DNA of 64,000 nt, taken from positions 13,895,653 to 13,959,652 of the forward strand of contig NC_134028.1 in NCBI RefSeq assembly GCF_964204645.1, written 5' to 3'. Positions 1 through 60,301 of the stretch are shown in pieces. Origin of the DNA: Tubulanus polymorphus. Taxonomy: Eukaryota > Animalia > Nemertea. The notes under the pieces are model-generated. The model saw nothing but the letters and a program-made list of their open reading frames with translations. It searched no databases and had not been told where the DNA came from. Positions within the stretch are counted from its first letter, which is position 1, and every line of letters begins with the position of its first letter. A program made the translations under genes and the position numbers.

Positions 1-3000
1 TTTCATCAAATATTCTGTTACCTAAAAACTTAGGATATGATTGTAAATGCCTTATCCTTTTGCCATTACTTACTAACTCAATATCATTTCTGTTTCTAAT
101 ATTTTCACCAGTCTTACCATAGAATGCATTGTTCATTAGTTTGAAGAAATCTTTCTCAAAATAAGTTTTAGCTTCAGTTCTCTGTTTGGTGTTAAAATCT
201 ATATATTTTTCTAACCACTTAGATTGACTGAATGAAATATAACTATGTACTTTTTTAGGATCATTCCTTGTTTTTAAATAAAACTTTAACATTCTATAAT
301 GTACTACATAATTATATTTATCTTCTTGAGTTACCATTAACTTTTCTGTATGAATATGATTTTCGGGTTTAATTCTTTTTTGATAATTTGATAATTCTTC
401 ATGAGTTACAGTTTTATGTTCTGGACAGTATGCTAGATTTCTAGATTTAAATTTAATATGTTCAGGATATTCTAAATCTACAACAAAGAAGTAACCAGTA
501 TCTGAATCATCTGCAATATCTAGGATTCTTTTCTTCCAATCAAATTTATCATTATTTTCATGTTGTGAAACTTCAGTTATTTCAAATACTCCATAAGGTT
601 GTGGTTCCATCATTGCCCAACCATACAAATTATTTGTATCTATATATAATAACTTATATCCGGGGTTATCATTTACATTGAAATATCTATCACCTAATAC
701 ACCTGAAACTCCTCCTCTTATAGATTTTTCAAATAATAATAATTGATCTATATTTGTTAACAAATCCATTTTTATATCTGTAAATTTTAATCCACAATCC
801 CATGTTAATCCTGGACTTGAATAACAATGACAAGGATCAATATTAAAATATTTTAGGTTTACATCTCTAAACCTTTCAAATATATCGGTTAATAATAATA
901 CATCTGATTTTAGATATGAATCTACTAATTGCCCATGATTTTCTATTTTGAAATGATTCCAAATATTCAATGTTCTATTATAGACTTCATCTTTAACATA
1001 TTCATTTTTTAATTCATCATAGAATTGTTCTTTCAATAATTCAGTTATGTTTAAATCATCATGATTTTTATAGAAAGAATATGGAATTGCGCCTTTATAT
1101 CTCATTAATTGGAAATCATCATTATTTGGGTAGTGTTGCTTTAATATTTTTAATTCATCATCAACTAATGATTTTGATAAGTTATCTAATGGACTATTTA
1201 AAAATCTATATGATTCTATAAATCTTAGGCAACCAAATTGGAATGATATATAATTCTCAGATGTTCTAGCTAACATTTTAAATTTATAAGTTGGTATTTT
1301 ATCCTTTGATCTATTTGAATTTAATCTTTCTATTTCATTATTAATTTCTTCTATTTTATGACATAACTGTTTGATGAATAAATGTGCATCATATCCTGAT
1401 AGATTATGAAATATAACTGGTACAAAGTTAATTTTCTTAGCTTGTAAGTTACAATTCTCATGTGCAGCACCTCTAAACTTTCCATTCAAATGATCATGGT
1501 CTCTTACTTTTTTATCTTTGAAATTAAATATCTTTTCACAATAATAACATTTATCTGCAAACTCAAATGCTTCTTTATCTTCTTCTGTCATTATAATTTC
1601 TATATTTTTATTTAACTTTTCATTAAATCTTATTTCATATTCAATTAATAAGTCACAAAAATGATTGATAACATTTTCATTTCTATAATGATAATATTCA
1701 CTTTTAATTAGTTCTGGATAATCAGATTTAATATATAATCCAAAAGCAGCAGCTGATTGATGAATCTTTTTAATAGTATTTGTTATTGGTGGTTCTTTTG
1801 AAAAATCAATTTCATTAGAATTTAATTTCTTTCTTTTATAATATATTTCTTTTCTATCTTGATCAGTTAATTCTTTATTTAATGATTCAAAATCTCCATA
1901 TATTACAAATGGAACTTTATTTTTGAAATCATATTTTTTGAATTCTAATATTTTATCCTTTTCATTTGGTAAAACTAATTTACAATAATCATGATTTTCT
2001 CATAATTGTTTACGATTTAAAAATGTACTTTCATTACTGAATGTATGTAAACATTTTCTACAAAGATATATTTTATGGTGATCATTTTCTGATTTAAAGA
2101 ATAATTCGATTTGTTTAATCCACATATAATGATTTTCATAATATAGTATATCTATAACATCATTTGAATCATAATCTTTTGATCGGTATAAAGGTTCTAA
2201 TGTATAAGGCTTTATATTGTTACCTTTTGTATTTGGTAATTTGATTAAATCAAATACATTAATTCTTAAATTATTATATCTTTCTATTTTGGGATATGTT
2301 TAATTCTAACAGGATACTTATCTATCTTATAATTATTTTCAAATTGTTTATAATTTGTTAATCTATAAGTATGTTTATTATAATCTTCAACTGGGTGTAA
2401 GCAACTTATAATTGCCCATAGAAAACATTTATCATCAAAATTTTGTACATTTATTACAGCATTAGTTTTAAATGGTAGTTTAATATAACTCGATGCTTCA
2501 ATATCTGGTTCTTTATAATATGATAAATTATTTTCATCAATTGGTTTTGATTTAGTTAACTTATTATATTTTGTGTTATACACATGTAAAGTCATAAATA
2601 TTATTTCATCAAATATTAAACAAGATCCTTCAAAATATTTCTCTTCTATTTTAGTTTTTACTTCATTATAACATTTATCTAATTTATCATCTATATGTTG
2701 TTTAGATATAATATGTTGTGGATGAGAATTGATATTATATATTGGTTTATCTTTAGATTTTATGAATTCAACTTGAGAAGATATACTAATTTTAGGGTAT
2801 TCAGCATCAGTTATTATTTTTATTATTTCTTTCATATTTTCTAAATGTTTTTTTATTTTCTTCTTATGTTTTTCCTTTATGAAATTTAAACTCGATAGCT
2901 GCTGGACCAATATCACTTTTAAATGCTTCGGTTATCTCTATATCTTTTTTATTATCTAATGAATTAATATAATTTCTTACATCTTCCATGTATGGTCTTT

Positions 3001-3346
3001 TATTGTTTAATTTATTTCTTATTCTTTTAATTGTCTTATGTTTCTTATCATTGTCATTATCAAAATAATCTTTACCTAAAATATCATTATTCATATTTCT
3101 AATATGGCTTTTAGATTTTAAATTTTTATTATAATATCTTTTATCACTGAATGATTGACTACAAGTATCACATTTGTATGTTTCTTTTTCATTCTTTAAT
3201 TCTTCTAATTTAGTTTCTAATATATCATCTTTATATTCTAATTTCAATTTATTCTCTAAATGTGTTTTAGTTTTATTGTGTCTTGATTTTTGGGATTTAT
3301 CTATATTGATATTACATGTTGGACAGTAGTACTTATTTGCTTCCAT
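1..3346 (-). pseudogene. Protein-primed family B DNA polymerase with N-terminal C2H2 zinc fingers and an inserted HNH/endonuclease-VII-like domain; disrupted near 2865 and 2284
   Basis: ORFs 2864-3346 (CPTC..H, CDTC..H) and 2284-2916 (DDKCFLWAI). Manual translation downstream: YGDFES (exonuclease I, ~1890), CYYC..VRDHDHLNGKFRGAAHENCN (~1450-1550), FHNLSGYDAHLF, YIDTNNLYGWAM (~630), EKDFFKLMNNAFYGK (~130). Confidence 0.9.
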
Positions 3347-3593
3347 TTTAATACTAAATTTTTTATTAAAATTGATTTTAGAAGTTCAATGATTTAAATA
3401 TGTATTATTTCAATCACACTTTACTAACACTTTTAATGTTTAAAAATCTAACTCATACAAATATAAATATTGAAATAATGTTTAAAATGTATCTATATAT
3501 CTATTATATAAGAGCTCACACTTTTATATTGAATAATCTGTCAATTTAAATGTTATTCATTTATATTTTATTCATGTATATGAATATTTTAAG

Positions 3594-3782
3594 AGTAATA
3601 GGGGTAATGGGCTTTCATGCTAAAGGTTGAAGGGGCGAGTGAGTAAAAAATGAAAGTAACAATAATTTCCATTTGAATTAGGAGTGTGCGCGACTAATTC
3701 AACTGGAAATTATTGTTATTTTCATTTTTTTGCGAGCTCGACCCTTCGACCTTTGGCCTGAAAGCCCATTACCCCTATTACT
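3594..3782. repeat. Terminal fold-back palindrome (189 bp) of Polinton-like copy 1
   Basis: AGTAATAGGGGTAATGGGCTTTCA... pairs with ...TGAAAGCCCATTACCCCTATTACT; loop GAGTGTGCGCGA. Confidence 0.92.
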
Positions 3783-5782
3783 AGTGTAGAATAAAACTCA
3801 TAGTCCAGTAGACATTTATTTAGGTTTTATCTAATGCCACAAATTCAAAACTAGTATTAACTGTTGTAAGACTTCTGGTATTACCCAGGGCTTACTCATA
3901 TTGAATTCAGTTTGGCCCCTGGCTTCAGTTTCAAGTTCCAGGTTAAAAATCCGACACCCGATGATCATTCTATAGCCTGAACAAGATTTGTGACGCAAAA
4001 AACCGTCAGGTTTACATGACAAAATTCTAAAACGGATTAGAGGTAACTCACCGTATGACATGGCAACCCAAGTTGCTTACATGTTTTTTCGTAAGTAGCT
4101 AAACCGGCATCTCTCCCTTTCAGTATAATAGTAGCGACAAGATCGGTCCGTGAAAAGTGATATGGCCCATGATATGCGTCTAAAATATATTGACATCGCT
4201 GAAGCCCCTCCCATTTTGAAAAGCATTATCCTCAACAAAGATATGAGGAAAAAGTTTACGAAAGAGTCTTCAATATTGAAAGCACAATTTCTATACCATT
4301 TCTTGCATTTTGAAAAACAGATATGGCTGTCTCCAGTTCAAAACACTTATAAAATGCCGACTATTTCTACCACTACCTCCCGTAAAATCCCCAGTGTTTA
4401 CTCACCACGTAGATCCCGCGACAAAATATGGTCAGCTGAACCCGCGCTTTGGTGTATAAGACCATCAATAATATCTTCAACTGAATTTTCAGATATTATT
4501 TTCTAAAAATTGAAGAATAGTCACCAGAATCTTTCAATAACAAAATAGGTTGTCATTTTGTTGAACGACGCGAATTCATCATCTTTACCTTGCAAAACCT
4601 CCACTTCCCTAATTGGAAAATCTTTTTTCCCATTGAACGAATCAAAGTGATTCGACGAGATTTTCTTTTTCATATACATCTTATTCAGTATACCGTTTAA
4701 TAAATATTTTGTACTATGAAATACCTGTGAATCCCAGTATGTATTGCAAACACGTCGATCATTATTTCGGCTAGAATAACGATGAATTTAATTTTAGCAT
4801 GGACTCAAAACAAGGAGTACATTCAATTGAGTACAGTAGGGGAGACGAGTTAGTTGTGCCACAAAAAAATTATGTACTAACTTCTTATGGGGGAGGGTTA
4901 AAGAAAGATGTACGTACTTTTCTGGTAGGGGCGGGGGGGGTTGGTGGGGTCTGTCAAACAGATGTACTAACTTAATGGACGAGAGATCCAAAATAACCTC
5001 AAATATATGTCTGAGAGGGAATGAATTACCGTAAACCGATCCTTATCTCATGTAATCCTACACTTTACTAAGTACCACAAACAACCTTGCGTAAAATCAT
5101 TGAGGTTGCGTCTAATTAACATAAAAGGTCAAAGAGTACTGTGTGTTTAAGTGTACTGCAAAGATGTTTCGTTACACTGAATTCATTAAACATTTTGTTG
5201 AGGCTTGAAGATATGGATTGAGATAACAGACAGAAATGATACGATCGATGCAAAATGGCAGAGCTGAGAGCAAAATCCTTAAAACGCAGGTCATCATTTA
5301 TCACGGGGCCAAGCTGCACAACAACCGGCGAAAAGCGACGACAATTGTCCCCGCAGGTAAATCAATTTCAAGCTATAGATCTCAATGATATTTCTCAAGC
5401 AAATCGAGACTTTATTAAACCCCCGTGAAGGTGGCTACCAGTTCGGCCGGTCCGGTTCGGCTCCCGCATCAAATTCATTTTGAATCGGTAGCCGAACCAG
5501 TAGCTGGCTCCCGATTTGGCTCCGAATTCAAAATGTCAATTTCCTATATATTCCGAACCAGAAGCTGAACCAGTAGTCGGTTTCCGATTCGGCTCCCAAT
5601 TCAAAATGTGAAGCTATCTACTTCTTATTCGATTCGACGATTGCCTAACCATGGTGTCTGCAATTAAGTGCTAGTCGCAGCCTTGACTTCGGCCACCAGG
5701 CTAAACGAGATGTTTAAATTGCCATCATTTCTCTACCGATTTCAGTAGTTTACGTGACTGTACCCGATTCATCTTACTCAGA

Positions 5783-6689
5783 AGTAATTGGAAAATCAGG
5801 GTATCATACCAAACGTCGAGAGGTCGGCACATCACTCATCACCACTCGTAATTTTTTCCTTATAAATGGGGGACAGAAAAGCATTCTTAGCAACAATGAA
5901 TAACAGAATAAAACCAGCAAAAAACAATATGAAATGAAAAAGTTAGTCGATGTTACAAACTAAATTGAACATAAATTATTAAAATTAGAAAAGAAAAACA
6001 CTAAATACGGATAAAAAATATCAGCAAATTAAAAAATGAAAATAAGTTTAAAGATTTAGAAAAATTTACCTTTTTTGCATTTTTACTCACTTTTATTATT
6101 GAAAAAAATTAATTATTGTTACTCACACTTTACTCACACATTTGATATCGTAAAATCTAAATTATTTTCAGTCACATTTTACTCGCACTTTAGATATTGA
6201 AAAATCAAAATTATTTTACTTACACTTTACTCACACTTTTAATATTGAAAAATCTAAATCATTTTACTAACTCTTTACTCACACTTTTAATATCGAAAAA
6301 TCTAAACCATTTTACTCACACTTTACTCACGCTTTTCATGTTTCGAATTTTATTATTTTATATTAAAAAGTTTGATCATTTTGGAAAAAAAGCAAAAAAA
6401 TGTGAATTTTTCTAAATCTTTAAACTCATTTTTATTTTTTAATTTGCTGATATTTTTTCTCCGTATTTAGTTTTTATCTTTTCTAATATTAATATGTATG
6501 TTCAATTTCTTTTGTAACATCGACTAACTTTTTTATTTCAAATTGTTTTTTGCTGGTTTTATTCTGTTATTTATTGTTGCTAAGAATGCTTTTCTGTCTC
6601 CCATTTATTAGGAAAAGAAATTACCAGTGGTGATGAGTGATGTCCCGACCTCTCGACCTCTGGTATGAAACCCTGATTTTTCAATTACT
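5783..6689. mobile_element. Non-autonomous Polinton-related mini-element (907 bp, ~290-bp TIRs, 6-bp TSD CTCAGA)
   Basis: Ends AGTAATT...AATTACT. CTCAGA at 5777-5782 and 6690-6695. Empty-site paralogue near 6958-6985. Internal TTACTCACACTTT repeats resemble 3412-3450. Confidence 0.85.
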
Positions 6690-7122
6690 CTCAGAATGTC
6701 AGTTTCAAAATCATTTTCAATCGGTTGCCGAATCGGGAACCGCAAAACCAGTGGCTGGCTCCCAATTCAAAATGTGAAGCTGGCTACTAATTGAGAAACA
6801 TATTCGATGCGACTCTATCGCAGACAGGTTAATGTGATGTGTCTGCTGTTAAGTGCTACCCGCAACCTTGACTTCGGCCACCAGGCAAATCGAGACGTCT
6901 AAATAACCATCATGTCTGTGCCGATTTCAGTAGTTTCACAGTCGCTACGCACTAGTTCCCGATTCATCTTCTTATTCAGAATGTCGATTTTTTAAGCAAC
7001 CATAATAGGTAATAGAAATGTATTGAATCGATTTCTGAACCGGGAACCACGAACCGGTAACTGGTTCCCAGTACAACTACCGATTCCCGGTTCCTGGTTC
7101 AAAATGTGAAGCTGGCAACTTA

Positions 7123-25596: not shown

Positions 25597-25926
25597 TCAG
25601 TGAGTATTTTATACTATTTGCAGTGTTAATTTAGTAGATTATGGTGTAATAACATAAAAGAATATTCCGTAGTACAAGAGTATAACATAAATCAGTGAAA
25701 TAGAGAAGTAATTCCATTAAATTAAGGTGAAATGTTTTGATGCAAGATAAAGGTTTATTTTGTATTGCGCAATCTAGAAATAGCTCAGATATTATAAGTT
25801 TGTATTATCTGTTTACAGATTTGAATCGTCCAAAATCCGTTGAATAAAGAAACATCAATTTGATATCCGGAGTTTGTTATTTGTCGGACGTATTCAAAAG
25901 CCACCACTTGAAAACCCATCGAGCCA
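25597..25926 (+). repeat. BEL/Pao 5' LTR (portion shared with the 3' copy)
   Basis: Near-identical direct repeat of 45553-45882, ending CA. Confidence 0.9.
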
Positions 25927-27174: not shown

Positions 27175-27939
27175 TAATAATAATAATAATAATATTTATT
27201 TACAGTCCGTTACATAAAATATCTCAACAGACTTTACAAATTGACAAAAACATAAGACAGTTGACAGATATATAAAATATTACCCAATAAAATAGATATT
27301 TAATTTCAAACGGTTGCTTCAAGTAAAATCATTTGTAGTGCTGATTAAATAGGTGCGTTTTCAATTGCGAGGTAAAACTATTAAGGGAAGATAAATCGCG
27401 CATCGACTGTGGCAAAGCATTCCAAAGGAAAGCTCGAGAGCCATAAAATTCTTGGCGGTATCTCGGTTCAAATAATTTAGTTGCCACGGTCGAGCGCGTG
27501 TGTCTGGAAGGTGTAAGAGTGGTTAAAACAGACGAAAGATAGGCTGGTGCTTGGTCATGCAAAATTTTAAAAGTTAACAGGAGAATTTTGTATTCAATGC
27601 GCGATTGAACAGGGAGCCAATGTAGTTCATACAGTATAGGAGTGATATGCTCGTGCTTCTTAGTGTGACTAGGCGTGCGGCAGAATTTTGAAGCATTTGT
27701 AGGCGAGAAATATAACAATTCGGAAGACCGTAGAGAAGACTATTACAGTAATCTAATTTGGAAGTTATAAAAGCGTGAATCAATCTTTCGGTGCTAGTGC
27801 GATCTAAAAACTTGCGTATTTTACCAATGCGATGCAGGGAGTAAGAAATCGATCTACAGACGTAAGATATATGACAAGACATGGTAAAATTATGATCGAA
27901 ATAAAAGCCAAGATCTCTGACTGACTGACAAGTAGCTAT
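27171..27939 (-). mobile_element. L2/CR1-group LINE, 3' part with (TTA)n tail
   Basis: VRDLGFYFD...SKLDYCNSLLYG...HITPILYELHWLPV; AATAAA followed by (TTA)n on the minus strand. Confidence 0.92.
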
Positions 27940-29022
27940 TGATCCGCAGCTGAATTGTACTTTCAAAAAGATCAAACGATTAATATACGTAGGTTTCTTG
28001 GCATGGTCCTGGGAGAACACACGCATTGTTCCTTGTGTACGATAATACATTATCCGCCTTAATGGTTGTTTGTCTGAAACATTTATACTTGTATCAGACG
28101 AGCATTCTAAATCACTTTGAAGGTAATCACGGCGCTGTAGTCATGAGAAGAATTCGTGGAAATGAGCAATTATGAAATCAACTTATGAAACACTCGCTGA
28201 CCCTTAGTCTGATAATTCGATAATAAGGAGTAATATTAAAGAGTAATATTAAAAAGTAATATTAAAGAGTTTTATTATTTTAATTAATAAGAGTTTGTGT
28301 GTTTAAATTTGAATGTACTAATAATGATAAAGAATATAAATAAGAAAGATGATATTTCGGCTTACATTGTATATTACTATTTAGACAAAATTAAATACCA
28401 TTCATTGTGGGAATTGTAATCATTGGATAAGTTAAAATAAATGAGTTCGAGGGTTGGAAAAATAGTATATATGTAATCTCTTCGGTGCGGTTGAGAAGGA
28501 GAGCAGACCGGCAGGTATCATGACGTCGAGGGTCGGGTTAAAGTTAGCAGCGAATGAAAGGTCTAGGAATCAGGACCCCAGCTCTGCGTCGTGGTGCTGC
28601 GTTGGTTGCTCGTTCCCTTTTACGGCTGGCCGCAAGCAGGGTTCTGGATTTTTCTTGGGTGTGGACGCAGCCGTATAAAAGGGGCCGCACCTCGAGAGAG
28701 AGCGGACTCTTTTGGAAAGCATTTTCAGGGGAAGCATTAGAAGACTATAGAACAGATAACTTTCGGCTATCCGGTTGAATTGCATCTTCTTGTGTGCGGG
28801 ATTTGTAACAAAATTCTAAATTAAAAGGTAGGGAATTTTATAAATTGTTGAGACTTTAGTTCAGTTAAAATTGTAGAATTAAAGTTGAGTATTATCATAT
28901 TTAAATCCGGAGTTCCTTTTATTCCTTGGTTTTCGGGTTTCTGTGTTCGTGGTCGACTTTCTCGCCAGGGACCGGAGTTTGTAATAGAGGAAAAAGACAA
29001 TAGAGAAAGGGACCGCGGAACA
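27940..29022 (+). repeat. Inverted LTR copy (1083 bp) at the element's 3' end
   Basis: Reverse complement of 38713-39795 (one mismatch noticed, near 28856); TG...CA; TATAAAA at 28674-28680. Confidence 0.95.
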
Positions 29023-29061
29023 TATTGGAATATGTTCCGCGGTCCCTTTCTCTATTGTCTT
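28994..29061. repeat. Perfect 33-bp-stem hairpin at the inner edge of the inverted LTR
   Basis: AAGACAATAGAGAAAGGGACCGCGGAACATATT-GG-AATATGTTCCGCGGTCCCTTTCTCTATTGTCTT. Confidence 0.97.
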
Positions 29062-29406
29062 CGTCGCTATGATGACCCTACTCGTTTCATTGTTCGTTTA
29101 ATTAATTGTATAAATTAATGCGTAAACGTATATCCCACATAAATATCACCTAAAGTAACCACTTAAATACGCATAAAATATCATATATGGTTATTATATA
29201 TCGTATAACTATCCGTAAACGAAAATGACATGATCAGCCTGATCAAATAACAATTGCAAAATAATCTTATCACGACTATACTTACAAAGCCGTCTTATAA
29301 ATTCAGGAAAAAGTGCCCATAGGACACTCCTGCCAGAATATTAACATCGCGAGGAGAGTATAACACTAATTCCTCCAAATGCGATGCTACTAAGTGATTC
29401 AAAATC

Positions 29407-32046: not shown

Positions 32047-32106
32047 TCTGAAAAGATAACAATGAGCCACGTCAATATGGCAAACTTTGGAACAGTCGTC
32101 GTCCTT

Positions 32107-38165: not shown

Positions 38166-38317
38166 TGTAAAAAAAATTCATTCAAAATTTCTATTGTTAA
38201 AATCATTATTACTATTACCGATATTCTAACTGATATTACTATTATTATTATTCTTATTATTATCTTATTATTATTATTATCCCTAAAATTCGTAGGAATA
38301 ATGCCAATGTATGGAAT

Positions 38318-38584
38318 TTATTGAAAGATCATGGCATAAAACCTAGAGCTTTCCGCCCATGAGGGGTCTTTGTGCTCTTTTCCCAGCACTTCCGCGGTTT
38401 CTACGAGGCAATTTCGAAGGTGCCTTAACTTTGGCCCATTAGCATTTACAATAAGCTCAAATGTTTCCTCGTCACCGGATGCGTTCGCATCCTGCTCCGC
38501 CCAATAGAGACCGTATAGGCCATCCGTGAATACTTCTAACAGAAAATCATAGGTTTCTTGGGCCTCTATGATCTCTTCATCCAT
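38318..38584 (-). CDS. Small acidic leader ORF (88 aa) between PBS and gag, function unknown
   Basis: ATG-initiated, GC-richer island within an AT-rich leader. Confidence 0.55.
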   Translation of the reverse strand: MDEEIIEAQETYDFLLEVFTDGLYGLYWAEQDANASGDEETFELIVNANGPKLRHLRNCLVETAEVLGKEHKDPSWAESSRFYAMIFQ

Positions 38585-38691
38585 AATTCAGAAATTATAT
38601 ATAATACTATCGTATTAGAAATTCAGAAATTTTTTTGTGTTATTTAAATTGGAATTTAAAGTAGCTAATTTATTATATATTATTCCGGAGT

Positions 38692-38709
38692 TCCCGGGTT
38701 TCGGCACCA
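38692..38709 (-). promoter_or_regulatory. Primer binding site complementary to the tRNA-Phe 3' end
   Basis: TGGTGCCGAAACCCGGGA, 3 nt after the LTR's terminal CA. Confidence 0.9.
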
Positions 38710-38712
38710 ATA

Positions 38713-47787: not shown

Positions 47788-47860
47788 GGCTTATTTTTTT
47801 TCGCCCCGAAAAAACTGGTGGAAACAATCAACCGACATCTACTTTATTACTGACAATATC

Positions 47861-47966
47861 AGTATTAGGGATAATAGGGGTTCAGGCCAAAGGTCGAAAA
47901 ATAAATTCTCGCACACTCGAATTTATTTTTCGACCTTTGACCTGAACCCCTAGTATCCCTGTTACT
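47861..47966. repeat. Left terminal hairpin (106 bp)
   Basis: AGTATTAGGGATAATAGGGGTTCAGG...TCGCACACTC...CCTGAACCCCTAGTATCCCTGTTACT. Confidence 0.92.
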
Positions 47967-48017
47967 CTCAAAATATTCATATCAAAAATCAATTTTAATA
48001 AAAAATTTGATATTAAA

Positions 48018-50049
48018 ATGGAAGCAAATAAGAAGTACTACTGTCCAACATGTAAAATCAATAAAGATAAATCTCAAAAAGCAAGACATAATAAAACTAA
48101 ATCTCACTTAGAAAATAGATTAAACTTAGAATATAAAGATGATATATTAGAAACTAAATTCGATGAATTAAAGAATGAAAAAGAAATATACAAATGTGAT
48201 ACATGTGATCAATCATTCAGTAACAAAAGATTTCATAAAGAACATTTAAAATCTAAAAGTCATATTAGAAATATTAATAATGATATTTTAGGTGAAGAAT
48301 ATTTTGATAATGATAATGATAATGATAAGAAACAGAAGACAATTAGAAGAATAAAAAATAAAATAAACAATAAAAGGCCATACATGGAAGATGTTAGAAA
48401 TTATATTAATTCATTAGATAATCAAAAAGATATTGAAATAACCGAAGCATTTAAAAGTGATATTGGACCAGCTGCTATCGAGTTTAAATTTTATAAAGGT
48501 AAAACATTAGAAGAAAATTAAAAACATTTAGAAAATAAGAAAAATATTATAAAAATAATTACAGACGTAGAATACCATAAAATTAGCATATCATTTAAAG
48601 TTAAATTTATAAAATCTGAAGATAAACCAATATATAATATAAATTCTCATTCACAACATATTATTTCAAAACAACATATAGATGATAAATTAGATAAATG
48701 TTATAATGAAATAAAAACTAAAATAGAAGAGAAATATTTTGAAGGATCTGGTATAATATTTGATGAAATAATATTTATGACTTTACATATTTATAACACA
48801 AAATATAATAAGTAAACTAAATCAAAACCAATAGATGAAAATAATTTATCATGTTATGAAGATGATAATATAAATGGATCAAGTTATATCAAATTACCAT
48901 TAAAAACTAATGCTGTTATAAATGTACAAATTGAAGATGATTAATGTTTTCTATGGTCAATAATTAGTTGCTTACATCCAGTTGAAGATTATATTCAACA
49001 TATTTATAGATTAACAAATAAGAAACAATTTGAAAATGATTATAAGATGGATAATTATCCAGTTAGAATTAAAGATACACCAAAAATAGAAAGAGATAAT
49101 AATCTAAAGATAAATGTATTCGATTTAATCAAATTACCAAATACAAAAGGCAATAAAATTGAACATTTTACATTAGAGCCTTTGTATTCAAAATATTATG
49201 ATTCAAATGGTGTTATAGATATAGTATAATGTGAAAATCATTATATGTGGATTAAACAAATAGATTTATTTTTTAGAACAGAAAATAATCACAATAAAAT
49301 ATATCTATGTAGAAAATGTATAACTAAATTCAGTAATGAAAGGGCATTATTAAATCATAAGCAATTATGCGATAATCATGATTATTGTAAAATGATTTTA
49401 CCAAATAAAAAGGATAAAATATTAGAATTTAAAAAATATGATTACAAAAATAATCTGTAATGATATGAGAACTTCTATGAAATTTAATAAACCAATTTAT
49501 GTTGGAGCAACAGTTTTAGAAATATTATTATTATTAATGTATCAATTCTATTATAACGTATTAAAACCTCATTTTGGAGAAAAGCATATAGAAATCTTAT
49601 ATTTTGATACTGACAGTTACATATTAAAGATAAAAACTAATAACATAACAGATGATTTAAAAACATTGAAACATCATTTTGATTTCAGTAATTATCCTAA
49701 AGATCATGAATTGTTTAACAATGATAATAAAAAGGTGCCAGGGAAGTTTAAGGACATGAAGAAATGATTGAATTCATAGGTATTAGATCTAAAATGTATT
49801 CACATAAAACTAAAACTCATAAATCAAAGAAATTGAAAGGAATTACCAAAAGTGTAGTCGAAAAAACATTCATTTTAAAGATTACATCAATTGTATATTC
49901 AATGAAAAAGTTAGAAAACATAAGATGAAATGTTTATGATCTCAAGATCACGAGATGTTCATTGAAGAGATAGAGAAGATAAGTTTGAATCCTTTCGATG
50001 ATAAAGGATATATTCTCGATGATTGTATACACACAGTTGTTAATGGTTG
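48018..50049 (+). pseudogene. ZnF-pPolB with a large internal deletion near 49455 and many stops
   Basis: Collinear with copy 1 up to KKYDYKN, then jumps to the C-terminal NKPIYVG..YFDTDS..KKVPGKFKD. Confidence 0.9.
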
Positions 50050-50536
50050 AAATTTAGAAGAAAACTTAAAATTTAAAAGAGAAGAGTCAAAAGAGAATGA
50101 GATTATGAAAAGGATTATTACATGTTAATCGGCTTTAATTCAATTTTAATAAAAATTTGTTATTAAAATGGAGAGAAAACAAGTACACAGTGAGAACAAC
50201 AAATCATTTCTAGATAGAATTAAGATACTACAAATGTAAAATCTGTAGATTATAAATTTAAGAAGTTAAATGAATTAACAATTCATAAGAAATATCTAAT
50301 TACAAATATTGATACAGCTACTAACAAATATGGAGATAGATTAATAATTCACTCAAAATATGAAGGATTAAAAGGAAAAAATATAAATTTAGAACATATT
50401 TACCAGATAGATTTCATAGATTATCTAGTGAAGATTTAGAAGAATTATGTTCTGGCGATTTCTATTTCATATATAAGGGTAAGAATGAAAAAGGGCACCA
50501 TGAAATAGATTTTGAATAAAAAAATATGTAAAATAA

Positions 50537-51300
50537 ATGGTAGAATTAAAAGAATATAGAATATTTGTTGATTCTAGAAAACTGATAAATTCTAAATAAC
50601 ATAATTTACCAGTACAATTAGATAGAGAATTTAAGAATTGCGTAGATTTGAAATTAGTAAATGTAAGTTTATGTAACTCATTTTACGATATATCGGATAA
50701 AACTATTGATCATAGACTGTTTATGATTCATGTTAGAAATATAAATAAATGGTTTCATCTATTTTTAAAACCAGGATTATATAATTTAGAAACATTAGCT
50801 CAAGAAATTAACAGAAGAGCCCGATTAAAACTTAGAAGTGAAGATAAATGTTCAATTAGATTTATAAAAAGTAATAGTTCTGATAAAATTAAAATAAAGT
50901 TAGATGATGAAACCAAACACGCATTTATGGTACACAAACCAATAGCTAAAATGTTAGGAATTAAACCATATACTGTTACAGGAAACTCAGACGGTAATTC
51001 AAATTTAATGCCTTTAACACACTTTTATATCTATTGCAATTTAATTGATCCTACAAAAACTTTCGAAGCAACTAAAGATAAAATTTGTAATTCTAGTATA
51101 TTAAATATTTTACCATAAAAAAATGTTAAACAATTTGGAACGCAAATAAGTTATAATTTAGCTGAATGTGATTTCAAACCTTGTATTCCAAAATTCAATA
51201 ATTTTACATTAGAAATTAGAAATCATAATGGATACTTAATTGATTTTAAAAAATTTTACTGTAATTTATGAATTAGTAATAATAATATGTGGAGAATAAG
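50537..51300 (+). pseudogene. Minor capsid (penton)-like protein
   Basis: PGLYN, FYIYCNLID..SSILNILP, ..FTLEIRNHNGYLIDF pattern typical of Polinton/PLV pentons. Confidence 0.6.
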
Positions 51301-51802
51301 TTTTTAACTATATAAATGAATATAACAGCAGGACCGAGTATATGTTTTGGATTTTATTTTAAACGTGAGAAAGAAATGAAACTTAACATTAATGATGTAA
51401 TAACATATATTAAAAATATTACATTTTTTAATGAAACATTTGATTTTGAAAAAATCTATAAATAAAGAAACTTTTAATGTAGAAAAGATTACTGATTTAA
51501 TTAGAGAGTCTTTAAGATTTTATGAATTAGATGAAGATTATAATATCATAAATGTTGAAATAATCATAAATAAGATAACTAAATATTTATATATAATCGA
51601 GCATTACTATCAGTTGGAACTTTTGGTTATACAATGGTATTAAAAAGTATTTATGATGGGAAGTGTAAATGTTGATAGATTTGATATAAATGACATTTTA
51701 AAATTAACATTAGCAGTTACTTTATCTAATTTAACTATTGATTATTTGGAAAAACAAAAGTATATTCCTCCTATATAAATGCGTAATTTTTTTACTAAAT
51801 AA

Positions 51803-52228
51803 ATGGCTTCTGCAATTATAACTATTATAGGATCGGCAATTGTTAACGCTTTAGCATTTACAGGTGGTGGGTATTTATTTAAGCATGTTGATAAAAATAG
51901 TTCATTAGCAGAAAAAAGAAGACATAACTTAGCATTAGAAAAATATAATAAAGCAGCAGAAGAATATAGAGAAAAAAGACAAAATTATATGGATTACATC
52001 AATAAAGAATTATATATTCAGAAATTTACACATAGAGATTTTCAATCAGTTGATGAAGCTATGACTTTATATTTATAAAATGCAGTAACAAATCGTGAAA
52101 AATCACAATTGTACAAACCTAAATGATCAGATTATTATACCCCAAGTAATGAACAGAAGAAATATGAAATAATTTGGATTTTAGGTGGAACAGTTATTGT
52201 ATTATTTGTTGCTTATAAATTTACTAAT
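51803..52228 (+). pseudogene. Small protein with N-terminal hydrophobic helix, coiled coil and C-terminal TM segment
   Basis: MASAIITIIGSAIVNALAFTGG..EKRRHNLALEKY; downstream EIIWILGGTVIVLFVAYKF. Confidence 0.6.
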
Positions 52229-52715
52229 TAGTAATTTCTTTTCTTAATAAATGGTTGATAAAATTGATAATGTTGATATTATTATTCCTCATGATATAAA
52301 TAAAACTAAATTAAAATTATATTCGGAAAAATAAATATTAGAATTTGAAAATGATTTAAAAATTAAAAAGAAAAAATATTTAAAAAGTATTTATAAAGTA
52401 AAATTATATATTATTTTATTATTAGTAGTTCTGTTACAATTAGTTCTGTAATAACATTTCTAGCATTATTCTCACCATTAACACCTTTATCTATCTCAAT
52501 TGGAGCTTTAGGTTTAAGTTCAAGTGTATTAACCGGGATAGGTTCAAAAATAAATATACAAAGTTATAAAGAAAAAATTAAATCTAATATATAAGAAATT
52601 AATAACCTACAAAATACATTAGATTATATAATAAGTTTAAATGGTAATATAACAGTTGAAGAACAAGATAAATTATTTAAAAAATTAATAAATTAATAAT
52701 TTTTTTATTATATAA

Positions 52716-54023
52716 ATGCTAGATAGTTTTCCAAAAGCTTTTCAATATAATGACTCGATTTAATATAATATTCCTGCAATAGATTTTAATAAAGATATTT
52801 CATATAGAAATGAAGTTTTGAATTCATCATATATTTTAGATATTAATGTTACTGAAACTAATAATTTTAATGCAAAGTTGGAAAATATATTCAATATTTA
52901 CGTAATTAATTTTAAAAATTTAAATGAGGCAAAACAATGATTATTAAAATCTAATATGAAGTATTGACAGAACCAATTTAATTTTGCAGTTTATTGTGCA
53001 ACAAGAGCGTGTGGTATAAGTTGGAATGATCATTTAAATAAACCAAGTTTACCATTAAAATTACATTTTTTAGATGTCATACATATTTTCAAATAAAATT
53101 AATATTAAATGAATTAGAGTGCCCTTTACCAGGTTAAAAATATTTTAATGAACTAAACGATAATATTAATTTTCTCAAAGTTTTATAAAATATGTAATGA
53201 ATTTAATCTTAATTCAAATAATGATTTTAGAGCAATAATTGGTACAATGGGTGGATTAGGAATATTATATACTAAAGCGTTTGGAAAAATAATGACAAAT
53301 ACAGACAGGAGAACACTAAATTGGAAAGAATTACCAAAATATCATAATAATATACAACAAAATAATAATGGATGGATTAATTTCATTTTAGAAAATAGTG
53401 AAGGATTTACTAAAGCTGGGATACAGAGAATAAATAAATCTATTAGAACTTATTTGATATGTATTCTAGGTGCACAAATTGAAAAAAGATCCACAATAGT
53501 TGGAAATGATAACACTTCATTTGACGCGCAGAAACAATTTAAAGTTTTATTTGAAGATTCAATTCATAATGATAAAAATAGATCGATTCCAGAAAACATT
53601 GTAAGATATCAAAATTAGTTAGATAAATCTCATGTAAGATTAAATTATTGTATAGGTTCTAATCTATTTATTATTTCAAATGATTTAGTATTAAAGATGG
53701 GAAATATAAGTGGTTATAATAATTTAATTAAGACTGCAACAATAAATAATTCATTTGGATTAAATGACATAAATAAAAAGATTATTACTGCTCCAAAACT
53801 AATGAAAGGTGAAAAAATTAAAAAACATATTCAATCAACAGAATATTAGATGGATAATGATTCTAACATAAAAGATTACAATACATCAGAAAATATTGAA
53901 ACTGATAATATTCAGCATGAAATAATTAAAAGTAATAATGATAATAAATCACATGAAAATACTAAATTAGCAATAACTTGTATAGGAATTGTAATTGGAG
54001 GGATATTATATTTTAAATTTTAA
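52716..54023 (+). pseudogene. Uncharacterised Polinton-associated protein with C-terminal TM anchor
   Basis: GFTKAGIQRINKSIRTY..FDAQKQF segment; ends HENTKLAITCIGIVIGGILYFKF. Confidence 0.6.
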
Positions 54024-54659
54024 TTTTTTATTATATAAATGGAAGAAGATATTCCAATGGATACTTTTGGTGACGCCCCTGGTATAAGTGATGAACCACA
54101 ACCTGATTTTAATGAAACTAATATTGATAATGATGATGGATCAGCATATAATACTAATTACTAACTACTAGGTGAGGATGATTCTAGTGGGCCTATATTA
54201 TATGATTATGATGAATTTAAAGATGATACTGAAACAAGTGAAAAACTAATAGATTATTTAAGAACCCACGATGAGATAATAATTAAAACTAGACCAGAAA
54301 GAAAAGATTCAATTAATAGATTAGAAAGAACAGAACACTCTGAATTGAAAAAGAATTATTATACATAAAACATAGTGTAACAAATACAGGCCTATTGAAG
54401 AATTATTACCAAAACATGTAACAGATAACATTGAACCAGAAGATATTTCAGAACAAATTAGAAAAGATGACATACATTTCATGAATAATTTTGAATTTAA
54501 AAATGATTCATTGTATTAAAATGTTGAATTAAATAACAAAACTGTATCAATTCAATTATCTGAAATGGGACAAGAAGATCTGTACCATCCAAGAATTCTT
54601 TTTTCTTGGCAAGAATCTTGGTTTCTTACTCGTACGTCTCGTACATAGATATATAAATA

Positions 54660-55451
54660 GTTATTTTATAAATTTATATTCATAAGGAAATTGTAGTCTC
54701 AGTAATAATTCTGAACCTTTATTACTTTTTAATTTATTCATATATTCATCATGTAATTCAGTAGGTATAATTTTATTTTCTTCCAATGATTGTTGCATAG
54801 ATTTCCTATCTTTATTGTAGAATAAAACTAGAAATCTAATGTTTTCTCTAAAATCTTTAACAATTCAATTATATTTTTGATTTAAAACCCAAGTTGTTAT
54901 CCCAAAATGTCTCCCAGAGAAAGCTAGATAACATAACACAACTCTAACTTTTGAATCATGGAAATTTGCACAATCATCTACATTGAATAATGTATTTGAT
55001 CCTTTATAGATACCATGCGCTATTTTTATACAATTATCTAAATCCTAATAGTCATCTTCAGGAATAAGACTTATTCCTGAAGATGACTATTAGGATATAG
55101 TCGAAACGTTGAAATAAACTACTATCTCGAAGTTTCATTTTCGGACTTTTTATTATCATTGTGGGATTCTCTCCTCATCGCGTCAACACGGATATAGTGT
55201 TCTACCAATCGTAATTATCTAAATTTTGTTTTACTGTTTTAGGATCTAATATAATAAACTTTTTTATCTTAACTATATCCCTATTATATGTTTTATTCAT
55301 TTCATAAGTAGGACAGAATAATATTATATTATCAAAATGATTTTTATAAAATAGTTTCTAACAAATCTAATATGAAATGCGTTTTACCATAATTTGTTAC
55401 CCCAGTAACTAACATATTATGCGGTTCAAATATAAATAAATCTTTATTCAT
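54660..55451 (-). pseudogene. A32/FtsK-like packaging ATPase, interrupted by a Penelope fragment
   Basis: Walker A LVTGVTNYGKT, ILFCPT, Walker B LFNVDDC, SGRH..TWVLNQ. Confidence 0.85.
55044..55212 (+). mobile_element. Penelope-like terminal fragment with a hammerhead core and a 5' inversion; ~12-bp TSD AATTATCTAAAT
   Basis: CTGAAGA-TGACTAT..ATAGTC-GAAAC at 55077-55107; palindrome 55042-55096; duplication at 55032-55043 and 55213-55224. Confidence 0.75.
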
Positions 55452-56505
55452 TGATTCTTTTACTTTTACTAGATAAAATCCATTCATTAAATTTAACATC
55501 ATACCCTTTATATTTCACCAAAGAATACTTTTTTCCTTTAAGAGTTTTTGTTTTCAATACTTTTTCTACTTGTATTCTATTTCATCTGGATTTGGTACAA
55601 GTGATAATTCTTGTTCATAGAAATAACCTAATATTTCTCCATCGTTTAAATCTTCTTATTTATAAACAAAAGGTTTAGTTAATATTATCTTTTTAATTTT
55701 GAATATTTCTTCTGTAAAATTTGGAGTATAACCTTTATAAAATGTTTTTCGATATTTAGATATTCTAACATGTTGCCCTATTTTAAATTTAGGTTCACCA
55801 AAACATGTGTAACAAACGCTCCATATAAATTATTCCAAACTATTTCTGAATTATCTTCTTTTCTAGCTTGTATAGGTTTCAAACCAATACTTGAATGTTT
55901 AGAATTATAATAACCTTTCACTAAATCATCTAATACATCGATATATTTATATGTTTCATTGGCAGTTAAATATTTCCACTTTCTAGTTTTCAATGTTTTA
56001 TTAAATCTTTCTATGATAGATGCTTTTTTTATCTGAATGCGTTGAAAAATACTCTACATCGTTATCAGATAATAATTTTTTAAAATTCATCAAATTGTAT
56101 CTTACCTGGAATAGCTTCTTTTAATATATTTATAAAAGCATTTGTTACTTCTATACCAGTTTTATTTTTGATTGGAATTGACCATGCGTATCTACTGAAT
56201 ATATCTATAACATTCAATATCCAGAAATATCCTTTGTTGTATTCTTCTAAGTTCTTCATGTCTATTAAATCTCCTTGCCATTGTTGATCAACATATGAAA
56301 CCGTAACTTTTCTTGTTAAATAATTTTTATCCATTTTCTTATGGATTTGATATGTTGGTTGATTTTGTAACCATAATCTTAGTTCACTATATTTTACATT
56401 TTCTTTATCAAATTTCATTTCATCCCATAATTCTGAAACACTAGAATATGATACTTCAATCTCTGGGTTATAATATAAATCTCTTAGATATTGTTCTTTT
56501 TTCAT
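55448..56505 (-). pseudogene. Retroviral-type (rve) integrase with C-terminal chromodomain
   Basis: WQGDLIDM, VIDIFSRYAW, ASIIERFNKTLK, FKIGQHVRI..KGYTPNF, EKVLK..LVKYKGY..EWI. Confidence 0.9.
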
Positions 56506-56511
56506 CTTATT

Positions 56512-56856
56512 TTAATCCATCAATAATAATCTTGGTTTATTTACAATGATTTTATCATTTGATTTATTTTCTGGTATAATAGGTTTATCATCAAAATAAT
56601 TATTATTAGATTTGAATCTAGATTTATATATTACACCAGAGAATATAATTACTGTGATAAACCCAAATGCTATATATAAGTAATTATTTCTTCCACTATT
56701 AAAAAGAATTAGATTTGAATTAATATCAGGTGATTCATTTATATCAGTGAATGTCTTTTTCTTAGCTCTTTTTAACTCTGAAGATCTTTTACCTAATTCC
56801 CTTGCCCATTTAATTTGTTTCTCAGATCTAGGCTTCTTCTTAATACCATCACTCAT
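56512..56856 (-). CDS. Uncharacterised basic protein with one TM segment (114 aa)
   Basis: Intact ORF in very AT-rich DNA; TAAATG start. Confidence 0.6.
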   Translation of the reverse strand: MSDGIKKKPRSEKQIKWARELGKRSSELKRAKKKTFTDINESPDINSNLILFNSGRNNYLYIAFGFITVIIFSGVIYKSRFKSNNNYFDDKPIIPENKSNDKIIVNKPRLLLMD

Positions 56857-56861
56857 TTATT

Positions 56862-57452
56862 TTAGTTAATTTTTGTTCTGATTCGTTTTCTGTTTCGCCG
56901 TGTGGGTGTCACACCATCTGTTTCGTTCTTACCTGATTTATATTCTTTAGGTTTGATATTCGAAAATGTTATGACACCAGTAGAGATTAATGTCATAACC
57001 GATCCTAATTGGAATGAAGCATATCCAACCCATTTTTGTAATTCAGTCATAACTAAGTAGTCATTTTTTAATTCAATATATAATTTATTTTCATCATTAA
57101 TTGACATTAACCGGTTACATAATTTTGAATAACATTTGACAATACCATCAGAAATATAATCATTTATTCTAGCTAATCTTGACTCTTCATTAATCTTAAG
57201 ATATTTTATTACTTTTTCTTTGTTCATATTATCTAATTTTTGAAAAGTTATAATTTTAGTTAGAAATTCTTTACACTTTCCGCTAGCAATTAGTAACTCA
57301 AGATGATGCTTACAGTATAAATAGCATTCGTAATCAATATTATTATCAACTTGAGCACAATCAATAAAAACTGTATCATTATTGCCAGTAATGCCCAAAT
57401 CCTCAATTGTCTTTTCAATATCAATACTATTCTTATTCAATTTCTTTGACAT
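56862..57452 (-). CDS. Uncharacterised Polinton-associated protein (196 aa)
   Basis: Intact ORF; TAAATG start. Confidence 0.65.
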   Translation of the reverse strand: MSKKLNKNSIDIEKTIEDLGITGNNDTVFIDCAQVDNNIDYECYLYCKHHLELLIASGKCKEFLTKIITFQKLDNMNKEKVIKYLKINEESRLARINDYISDGIVKCYSKLCNRLMSINDENKLYIELKNDYLVMTELQKWVGYASFQLGSVMTLISTGVITFSNIKPKEYKSGKNETDGVTPTRRNRKRIRTKIN

Positions 57453-57719
57453 TTATATTAGAGAAAAAAAAACAAAAAAAATATTATACTTATTCTTCAA
57501 ATGATACTAGTAACTCTTTAGTTAATACTAGCTTAGTTAAGTTAAAGAATTCTAGTATTAACTAGATTTGAATAGCTACGTGAAGATAAAGAATTTCTAT
57601 TCGAATATATTCAAAATATAAAGTATTCTCTTTTGAAAAGAAATATTAGATTTTGAAAAATATCTAATATCTAGTTGAAGTTATGTAATTTTTAATATAT
57701 TTTTATTTAAATTAGGATT

Positions 57720-58435
57720 TAATACCTCACTAATTTTGTCTATCTATGCGGAGCAATTAAATCGTCCAAATAAGTCATTTCGGATTCTCGGTATTGAATC
57801 ATATTCCATAATTGTATAAATCTTTTAGCTTTAATTATTTGATTATTATATAATTCATTATAAATTTTATCATGTTTAATTCTATTTTCTGTTTTCGATA
57901 AAGAATAATATTCTTCCAATTACATATTGTTTTTATTTCAGATTCATCTTCTATTGATGATAATGGGATAACATGATCTAACTCCCAATATTCTCCATGA
58001 TTCTCAAAGTTCATGTTATTATCGAACTGATATTCTATCCATGCTTTAAAGAATTCTATAGAACACCCTAAATAACCAATTGATCTATCAGATTTTATAA
58101 AATTTTTGGAAAACCCTGTTCAAACTAATTCTGTTAGTATGCTTTAATTTGAATAATGGATCTGAATTATATTTTACTTTTTGGTAATTATTGATATGTT
58201 CACGGTTATCTTTTATCCAATCTCTCATGTATTCTGGGTTATTTTCTCGATATTGTGCATTATTTTGTTTCCAACATGTTTTACAAATATTTCGTAAATC
58301 ATCTTTTTAAAACTTTTGTTTACAATATTCTGAAGATTGTTAATTTAATTCACACTTAGAACATATCTTATGATAAATATTTATAACACCAGCGTTATTT
58401 GTAATATTAATAATTTGTGGCTGTTTACTTTCCAT
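57720..58435 (-). pseudogene. HNH-type endonuclease of the kind common in large DNA viruses
   Basis: Manual translation: ICSKC.., YLGCSIEFFKAWIEYQFDNNMNFENHGEYWELDHVIP..CNWKN. Confidence 0.7.
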
Positions 58436-59707
58436 TTACAATATATGAATTTTTTTTATTTTATTTGAAATATATTTGATAATTTCCGTCTGTTCGTCTT
58501 CGACTTACGTCATCCTTTTTCATTCCTCGCTACTTTTGATAAGTCATTTCGGATCCTTGATATCAAAATCATACCAGTTGCAATATCCAAGGCGGGCCTA
58601 AATGACCGCTTTTGCTCAGTAGGCGCCAATCATAATTATATATTTATTCTGTAAAATTGAAACGACCGAACATAGAACATTCACACGTATGTGCACTGAT
58701 CAAAACCAGTCCTAAATGGCCCCTTTTGATCAGTGCGCGTGCGCCAATCAAAATTATATATTTATTCTGCAAATTGAAACAACCGAACATAGAACATTCA
58801 CCAAACAGATTTACACAATACATATACAAGTATGTTCGGTCGTTTCATCCAATGCATCATTTTATTTCTATATATAAAATTGATAATTACGAACATTTTT
58901 TCATTTTCCGGTTTATATTTAACTACATCAACAAATGTCAAACTTAATAATTGGAATTTTTGGAGTAGTCTAAATGTTTCTGAAATTCTTATATAGTTTC
59001 TTCGTCGATCTTTTGTGTTTCTTGTGCTTCTACACCCATTTCTATTGGTTCGACTTTCAGTGCTGTTGATTCCTCAGAAAGACTATCTTGAGTTGATCTA
59101 TCGCTTCTTGATGCGTATGACGTTTTATTAATCTAAAAGATATCGGCGGTAACTCTAGCTATCTAAAAGATATACTAAATATAAACATATTTAAAGGTTT
59201 CATATTTAGTAGCCTCAATAACAACAAAAGTACTTACATTTAACTCGCGAACTGTTATATCCGAAATGGGATAGATATTATAACTGTATATGTATGTCTG
59301 TTTGAGGGAGCGGTCTCTGGTTCAGTGTTAATACGTCATGTGAATGTACTAGCGCACACGAAACTTTCAGTTATTAAATTAACAAGCACCATCTGTCACC
59401 GTTTGCAGTAAACGATCGTTAATAATTCCGCGCGTAAGTAGGCAACAGGTGTTTTTGCAGTTTTACAGTGTTGTATGATATAATGTTAGATATCAACTGG
59501 TAGTATGAATATGGCTCAATCCTTATCTCACTACTTTGTCTATCTAAATGTGTTCTAGTTTTATTGTGTCTTGGTTTTTGAGATTTATCTATATTCATTT
59601 TACATGTCGGACAGTAGTACTTCTTATCTGCTTCCATTTTAATATTAAATTTTTTATTAAAATTGATTTTAGAAGTTATTCATATTCATATATATGAATA
59701 TTTTAAG

Positions 59708-59829
59708 AGTAATAGGGATAATAGGGGTTCAGGTCAAAGGTAGAAAGGTCGAAAAATAAATTCGAATGTGCGAGAATTTATTTTTCGACCTTTCGACCTT
59801 TGGCCTGAACCCCTATTATCCCTATTACT
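59708..59829. repeat. Right terminal hairpin (122 bp)
   Basis: AGTAATAGGGATAATAGGGGTTCAGG...GAATGTGCGA...CCTGAACCCCTATTATCCCTATTACT. Confidence 0.93.
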
Positions 59830-60301
59830 AATATCAATTAGCATCCCATAAACATTCAATACAAATATCTAAAATGACAATACAATATAGTGTGTTCATT
59901 ACATACACTTATACAGATATTTCATCACAAGAAGCAAAGAAAATACAATAGATTATTTAACATCGGAAAATTGACGTATTCAGTAGATTACAATAGTTTA
60001 CAAAATATTTATTCAAGTCCAGACATTTGATCATAGTATCCTGCAACTAAATGCAACTAATGTCCGACACAGTCCTTTCAAATGCAAACAAACACGTCCA
60101 ACAAAACGAATGTTCCGCCACATCCAGCGACCAAATACATGACGAATATAGATTACCAGCGACAAGTTCATAAACACCACACAGCGAAAAATAAACGACG
60201 AATAGAACACCATATAAAACAGCGACATTACAAATACGCGATATAACCGCACTCGACAAATATATCCCGGAACAGTGTAGAGATTTCGACAGCAATCCTT
60301 A

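Follow-up and report, generated by a model that had tools for sequence, protein, structure and literature searches.

Long, co-varying and mostly one-way terminal palindromes on a Polinton family with an endonuclease VII-type pPolB

In the adenovirus panhandle, protein priming takes place on an origin re-formed by pairing of the inverted terminal repeats. A panhandle origin is described in the available text of PMC4046053, and in the standard model of Polinton replication, as presented in the accessible parts of that source and of 10.64898/2026.07.28.741278, the excised single strand pairs TIR to TIR. Unlike in the adenovirus panhandle, the pairing considered in the present study would be local, within one end, and not between ends.

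The elements analysed here share pPolB, an rve integrase, an ATPase, TIRs, AGT...ACT ends and a 6-bp target-site duplication (TSD) with the Polintons or Mavericks (adintoviruses) that carry an HNH/EndoVII pPolB (accessible portions of PMC8097293 and PMC12747079). Unlike in described Polintons, the outer 106–189 nt of each TIR are palindromic and contain a second tip sequence. Terminal palindromes or hairpins are not mentioned in PMC8097293 or 10.1101/2023.08.22.554363, nor palindromes in PMC8502044, and nothing on Polinton end hairpins appears in the text available for PMC11296320, 10.1101/2022.05.25.493380, PMC12747079 and 10.64898/2026.10.13.758929. Terminal palindromes as such have already been described, mostly on non-pPolB elements, in a 2026 preprint on Halocafeteria seosinensis virophages and PLV subtype 4 (10.64898/2026.07.28.741278, available text). 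Those elements have palindromes inside their TIRs, beside the TSD, and rve integrases, as here. Their palindromes, however, measure 52 nt in the figured subtype, are preferentially associated with non-pPolB replicases and are read as hairpin primers, whereas the present ones are longer and lie beside a TP-bearing pPolB. The text of the preprint makes no mention of orientation, mismatch, compensation, covariation or wobble.

Two more distant systems offer comparison. In the telomeres of Streptomyces linear replicons (Tpg/Tap; PMC5449611, in part), the 3' strand folds on terminal palindromes, with TP priming, fold-back repair and a fixed polarity; those replicons differ in being bacterial, with an internal origin, several short palindromes, the primase Tap and no integration, and the likeness is drawn without a claim of homology. 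Parvovirus telomeres (the AAV ITR and the left end of MVM and LuIII; PMC1185569, in part) share a terminal palindrome, and at the left end of MVM a mismatch bubble goes together with asymmetric resolution. Unlike in parvoviruses, no Rep/NS1 was detected in the 18 element frames scanned, which come from incomplete copies, flip and flop are not near 1:1, and the pPolB has a TP-like domain.

The polarity of end palindromes was not found in the literature searched; earlier mention may exist in subscription journals, Repbase reports and preprint supplements, which lay beyond its scope. What appears to be new is the occurrence of long, co-varying, one-way terminal palindromes on a TP-bearing pPolB Polinton.

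Terminal palindromes of two Polinton copies

The window (the whole 64,000-nt stretch of Tubulanus polymorphus DNA under analysis) contains one end of a first element and a second element between two TSD copies (Table 1). Judged by pPolB, rve, TIRs, AGT ends and the 6-bp TSD, the family is Polinton; the Polinton features present are pPolB, an rve integrase (in element 2; element 1 leaves the window), TIRs with AG/AGT ends, the 6-bp TSD and a packaging ATPase. Queries from relatives (three putative MCP, one protease and two penton) gave no capsid or protease match at E ≤ 0.1; element 2 is 12 kb long and internally deleted. A weak DUF5901 match (E 0.006) lies at 50600–51115 in element 2.

Table 1 Coordinates of the two elements, their palindromes and coding remnants in the window
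Feature	Position	Strand	Basis or remark
hp1, terminal palindrome of element 1	3594..3782	+ (strand carrying the element's 3' end)	fold and reads
hp1 inner arm	3594..3680	+	starts AGT, second copy of the tip sequence
hp1 loop	3681..3694	+	likely internal-loop halves joined after loss of the apical hairpin, inferred from read departures
hp1 outer arm	3695..3782	+	ACT at host junction
AT-rich spacer, palindrome to pPolB start	3347..3593	.	length differs among copies; deletion joints in reads
Element 1 pPolB, running off the window	2..3346	-	four broken frames, Pfam and motifs
Left target-site duplication AATATC	47855..47860	+	sequence
hp2, element 2 left terminal palindrome	47861..47966	-	arms 48/48, loop 47909-47918
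Element 2, decayed and internally deleted Polinton, 11,969 bp	47861..59829	.	TIRs, TSD
Element 2 pPolB remnant, several frames	48018..50125	+	tblastn; without about residues 482-1142 of relative L017
Element 2 packaging ATPase remnant	54667..55044	-	tblastn E 1e-22 to Walker-A ATPase ORF of L035
Element 2 rve integrase remnant	55590..56511	-	PF00665 E 1.6e-4 (below Pfam cut-off); tblastn E 1.5e-95 to L018 integrase
hp3, element 2 right terminal palindrome	59708..59829	+	arms 56/56, loop 59764-59773
Right target-site duplication AATATC	59830..59835	+	sequence

The first palindrome, hp1, is imperfect and 189 nt long, with 77 Watson-Crick pairs between an 87-nt and an 88-nt arm and a loop of 14 nt. 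The segment 3585–3795 has a folding energy of -76.9 kcal/mol, where shuffles average -17.4 (z -19.1), and none of 200 shuffles was as good. hp1 closes an AT-rich block that encodes a broken pPolB on the minus strand, and on sequence grounds this end of element 1 is that of a Polinton with an endonuclease VII-type pPolB. In element 2, 44 of 48 pairs are Watson-Crick in hp2 and 54 of 56 in hp3; its TIRs take in palindrome, spacer and pPolB start (inverted repeat 91% alike over 131 nt), and both palindromes end flush against the TSD. Since hp1, hp2 and hp3 each start with AGT and finish with ACT, every end has two copies of the tip sequence. The initial annotation had described hairpins of two Polinton copies. 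The termini are indeed related, but there are three hairpins, and its second copy comprises both ends of a single element bracketed by AATATC.

Reads for comparison came from Illumina run X4, which bears the same species label and belongs to a separate study; ~12 in 100 of the run was sampled, and 12,802 reads mapped on hp1 and 5,772 on hp3. The hp1 palindrome forms the extreme tip of an integrated Polinton: past 3782/3783, 1692 and 548 reads continue into mutually unlike letters (agreement 0.34 and 0.36), as do 1021 reads of the hp3 mapping past 59829. Depth was 2,700–3,200 on the hp1 stems versus a mean of 6.4 in the host flank, and inner-flank depth divided by single-copy depth gave a count of ~340–720 termini. 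Palindromes are a known class of assembly and library artefact. A fold-back artefact is nevertheless refuted as the source of these: the arms are imperfect and differ between copies, the TSD brackets element 2, and in the reads of a separate study depth is similar over the inner arm, the apex and the outer arm.

Other features of the window were noted alongside. At the ATPase remnant of element 2 lies a 63-nt palindrome that is nearly perfect (55038–55100), unrelated to the terminal hairpins and possibly an insertion footprint. A Gypsy-type gag/pol with chromodomain, together with an 887-aa orphan frame (29407–32070), occupies 27937–39798 and is flanked by 1092-nt repeats (99.8% alike) that are inverted, not direct, the left one having a 68-nt palindrome (28994–29061) at its inner edge; a template-switch inverted LTR, an assembly error or an unusual element are alternative accounts of this arrangement. 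At 5591–6943, a fold-back-like block has nested inverted repeats (5783–6084 and 6386–6689) around a 48-nt tandem repeat. Fragments at 62347–63846 show weak similarity to baculovirus F (envelope fusion; E 3e-4 to 8e-3) and may be what is left of a retroelement env. Two 330-nt direct repeats, 98% alike and 20 kb apart (25597–25926 and 45553–45882), bracket BEL/Pao remnants with nested LINE and Gypsy insertions.

Mirrored change, apical structure and strand polarity

The stems that the initial annotation had compared between copies were found at 3601/3759 in hp1 and 59715/59806 in hp3, and the outer arm of hp2 at 47868 has the same stem as hp3. Over the outer 23 pairs, hp1 and hp3 differ at pairs 11, 16, 19 and 20, on both arms in each case (4 of 4 mirrored; overlap p 1.1e-4). 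Covariation analysis of the three hairpins of the window gave four double-sided changes, a number reached by 5 of 500 shuffles and not by slid controls (0–1), although pair counts from three related rows are more a description than a test. Length changes are mirrored too: hp3 exceeds hp2 by 8 nt on both arms, and thus two ends that were integrated together differ by a mirrored indel. In the reads, letter shares at mirror positions were 73/81, 78/81, 52/45, 49/38 and 33/38%, values inflated by the fact that a read can map to either arm. Mirrored substitutions, pair counts and read shares together bear out the earlier proposal that the structure is kept by change on both sides. Its other proposal, that one arm is templated from the other, fails in the form of wholesale copying in each cycle. 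The arms of hp1, hp2 and hp3 also have positions that stay unpaired or as wobbles, with a fixed direction. The T·G wobbles, present in most reads, would be lost under such copying; because these polar mismatches persist, the arms are not wholesale re-copied each cycle.

The loops stand as originally quoted, but the 14-nt loop of hp1 proved atypical, with reads showing further stem and an apical loop in many copies. Depth over the hp3-type apical hairpin was 0.97 of that in the middle of the inner arm, so most ends carry such a hairpin; two apical-loop positions vary between C and T (891/1766 and 595/1770 reads). At 59750, 605 reads were continuous against ~1,770 on the loop, which indicates stems longer than that of hp3 in most copies. 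From hp1, 395 reads depart in mid-loop at 3686, while 565 and 552 reads extend the hp3-type apical hairpin on either side with further stem. Because reads leave at 3686 and the apical hairpin is flanked by further stem, the hp1 loop probably consists of joined internal-loop halves; in many copies the two halves are likely an internal loop below further stem and an apical loop of hp2/hp3 type. The GAGT and GCGAG motifs of the loop recur lower in the hp1 stem (3636–3644 and 3731–3740) as an asymmetric internal loop, and the reads suggest nested modules built on this pair. Stem length is very variable among copies, with nested modules and deletions.

Rolling-hairpin and poxvirus-type telomeres are long, AT-rich, imperfect terminal hairpins, and the ends described here resemble them. 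Symmetric resolution of that kind would yield flip and flop equally, and the initial annotation had envisaged a tally of such isomers. All three ends in the window face one way, with the same loop direction relative to the element interior, and the reads allow at most ~10% inverted ends. At pair 27, the inner arm has T in ~90% of reads (59734) versus G in ~87% on the outer arm; inner T was found in 1498/1738 reads (86%) at 59742 and 1007/1765 at 59735, their G partners being unchanged among the variants listed (40 of 65). At a subfamily wobble (59746/59791), inner T and outer G reached 38% and 37%. Inner-flank depth was 92% of inner-arm depth, so inner-arm reads are mostly true inner arms, and reads placed on the wrong arm would only blur the T/G asymmetry. 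A joint from 59829 to the inner boundary, as expected of an inverted end, was absent among the 12 joints listed, and the A>C changes of the loop are insufficient: inversion would need two, and one lies outside the variants listed (40 of 65). Letters expected of an inverted end do occur in ~10–13% of reads at 59734, 59742 and 59803, and 25 reads support five opposite-strand joints; however, the minority letters of 59734 and 59742 are also present in hp1 and hp2, neither of which is inverted. Logan contigs X1–X3 held no information on orientation. A 50:50 mixture is thus contradicted by the raw reads, with room for a minority of up to ~10%, and we regard symmetric resolution as largely refuted and very improbable.

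The polarity extends to folding. The strand with the element's 3' end tolerates T·G pairs, whereas the other would have C·A at the same positions. The 3'-terminal strand folded better in all five end palindromes examined, two of them from relatives treated below: by 5.9 kcal/mol in hp1, 1.6 in hp2 and 3.1 in hp3, with -42.2 vs -33.3 and 5 vs 0 G·T pairs in L118, and -85.6 vs -80.6 without wobble bias in L047. Mismatches over these five hairpins numbered 8 of G·T type vs 3 of A·C type (p about 0.11 by hand, hp2 and hp3 not being independent). Strand-biased C-to-T change could mimic the wobbles. Post-insertion CpG decay as their sole cause was rejected, the partner sites showing no matching change among the variants listed (40 of 65). 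The palindrome likely folds on one strand only, the one with the element's 3' end.

The polymerase and the ends of related elements

The pPolB is broken in both window copies, with exonuclease and polymerase motifs found. In element 1 it falls into frames 2867–3385, 2287–2931, 2003–2299 and 2–1999, which contain zinc fingers, a TP-like domain, vOTU, exonuclease, an EndoVII-type insert and polymerase motifs, with Pfam matches to PF03175 (E 1.1e-12) and PF02945 (endonuclease VII, E 3.2e-5). The nearest named PolB is that of a Corynactis coral adintovirus (34%); the EndoVII-type insert and the names of homologues point to the pPolB2 or Beta adintovirus class.

A sequence search of solved structures matched zinc fingers only. 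The N-terminal region was modelled on residues 93–474 of relative L017, not on the broken gene of the window (58-row alignment, pLDDT 80.5), and the model has a beta-alpha-beta-beta-alpha-beta domain of four strands and two helices. Its top Foldseek matches were Y-family polymerases, including an isolated little-finger domain, at a best E of 2.4e-3 and none at 0.001; this class of fold match is what defines the PRD1-like TP domain according to Krupovic et al. (10.1101/2024.03.18.585575, available text). The predicted linking residue, a Ser between the second helix and the last strand, is present in 56/58 rows (Thr in 2), the vOTU Cys and His in 58/58, and both window copies keep all three. The evidence, weak but consistent, suggests that the family pPolB keeps a terminal-protein-like domain with a predicted linking Ser and still looks protein-primed. 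The idea of a hairpin substituting for a lost terminal protein was rejected, as TP-like fold, Ser and vOTU are all kept.

We examined 119 relative loci, and the palindrome counts among them are not a prevalence because most of the contigs are without an element end. Self-palindromes of at least 80 nt occurred in 5 of 96 pPolB loci: at the contig start (L047), in subterminal position (L028), inside a truncated gene (L041) and as internal repeats (L009 and L010). Among 23 further loci there were three (L118, L097 and L101), that of L101 being an inverted duplication of apparent pPolB coding DNA. Locus L118, whose pPolB is 33% identical to P0001, has a 129-nt palindrome (5614–5742) with a similar tip, ~150 nt upstream of pPolB and adjoining 5.6 kb without a frame of 100 aa, a putative flush element end. 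The L118 contig is filed in an archaeal MAG and is likely eukaryotic and mis-binned. In L047 (33%), a 249-nt palindrome at the contig start is taken as the element end, and ATPase-, capsid- and integrase-like genes are present. L020, with 64% pPolB identity, has one outer-arm-like stretch upstream of pPolB (160–202, E 0.003) without a partner arm, and the hairpin may thus be dispensable in close relatives. A degenerate outer-arm pattern gave 0 matches in viral contigs and 0 in metagenome contigs, and a single-protein scan of viral contigs gave none. The 184-nt palindrome of L097 (4657–4840) has rve on one side and an EndoVII-type pPolB on the other, and at its base Polinton-like tip repeats point towards each other; it is possibly a circle or tandem junction of element ends.

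The palindromes might be by-products of occasional fold-back template switching, mechanically homogenised and without function, with which the family has expanded. The great variability of stem length, with its nested modules and deletions, and the single arm of L020 agree with this, and accidental annealing is offered as an alternative in the accessible text of the Halocafeteria preprint (10.64898/2026.07.28.741278). Against it, most of several hundred ends have kept the apical hairpin and the polar wobbles, a relative at 33% identity (L118) has a palindrome, putatively flush, that matches in strand bias and resembles these in its tip, and fresh fold-back copying would be expected to give perfect arms. 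We consider a functionless by-product quite improbable.

Extrusion of cruciforms is hindered by mismatches and internal loops, both of which occur in these arms. This weighs on a further account, in which each palindrome in the chromosome would extrude a four-way junction based at the exact element end, to be cut by the EndoVII-type domain of pPolB; the cut would release the element with a precise nicked fold-back end, of one orientation and fit for protein priming, opened without inversion by TP-pPolB or strand displacement. In its favour, the palindromes directly abut the TSD, element 1 has an intact EndoVII-type motif, which 110/120 homologues also contain, the loci with long palindromes L118, L047 and L097 all match PF02945, and an unligated cut would, by reasoning, keep orientation; T4 endonuclease VII cuts junctions, bulges and mismatches (PMC10956419, in part). 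Yet the domain is common in relatives whose ends are single-armed or unassessed, so no correlation emerges (L020 has the EndoVII motif without a Pfam match at E 0.001), the Pfam match spans only ~50 of 82 positions, and solo palindromes left in the host amount to at most ~8% of ends by the depth step. Such nuclease inserts are, moreover, read as homing-endonuclease relics in the text available of 10.1101/2024.03.18.585575. Excision through a cruciform is distinctly unlikely on this balance; if true, it would supply the missing Polinton excision step and a role for the nuclease insert.

Fold-back of the 3' strand as a candidate origin

For the palindromes as a whole we favour, at about even confidence, a fold-back of the 3' strand from which the element's own polymerase would start protein-primed copying, the local duplex being both its origin and a template for repair. 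The 3' arm of the displaced or excised strand would pair with the neighbouring inner arm, not with the far TIR, and TP-pPolB would copy the linear genome end to end, with arms, loop and mismatches keeping their polarity. Linear TP-primed copying of this sort preserves orientation and mismatches and so fits the observed pattern. With pairing confined to one end, each end could work alone and the two ends of one element would be free to drift apart; local fold-back repair would thus keep the two arms of an end alike and let the two ends of one element diverge. Selection for pairing on the 3'-end strand, combined with occasional short-patch correction (3' trimming and refill, or nick and fill), would yield substitutions and indels mirrored on both arms and yet leave G·T wobbles and internal loops in place. 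By analogy, such an origin may resemble TP priming and repair on the 3' fold-back in Streptomyces (PMC5449611, in part). Cruciform excision can coexist with it.

A paired 3'-OH beside a single-stranded template should also prime itself, which counts against the fold-back origin. In a rival account, hairpin self-priming with asymmetric resolution, second-strand synthesis would start from the folded 3' end and only one side of the dimer bridge would be cut; minute virus of mice resolves its left end in this manner and there, too, retains a single orientation and a mismatch bubble. The fold places a paired 3'-OH next to template, the single orientation and polar mismatches reproduce the parvovirus left-end pattern (PMC1185569, in part), and hairpin priming has been proposed for the Halocafeteria elements (10.64898/2026.07.28.741278, available text). 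However, a Pfam scan of 18 element frames found no Rep/HUH nickase, albeit in incomplete copies with element 2 deleted, and the TP-like domain, Ser and vOTU are all kept, which a self-priming element would not need. Self-priming is accordingly unlikely in our judgement.

A 3' fold-back origin would bear on the way in which a Polinton, once integrated, recovers the free ends used in protein-primed replication. Strand and polarity can be read from the several hundred natural variants of the end structure in this family. They speak against both symmetric flip/flop and the wholesale copying of arms, and supply short substrates for tests of priming, repair and junction cutting. With the present ends, terminal palindromes, so far described mostly on non-pPolB protist elements, also occur on a TP-bearing pPolB Polinton whose host, judged by neighbouring retroelements and homologue names, is likely an animal.
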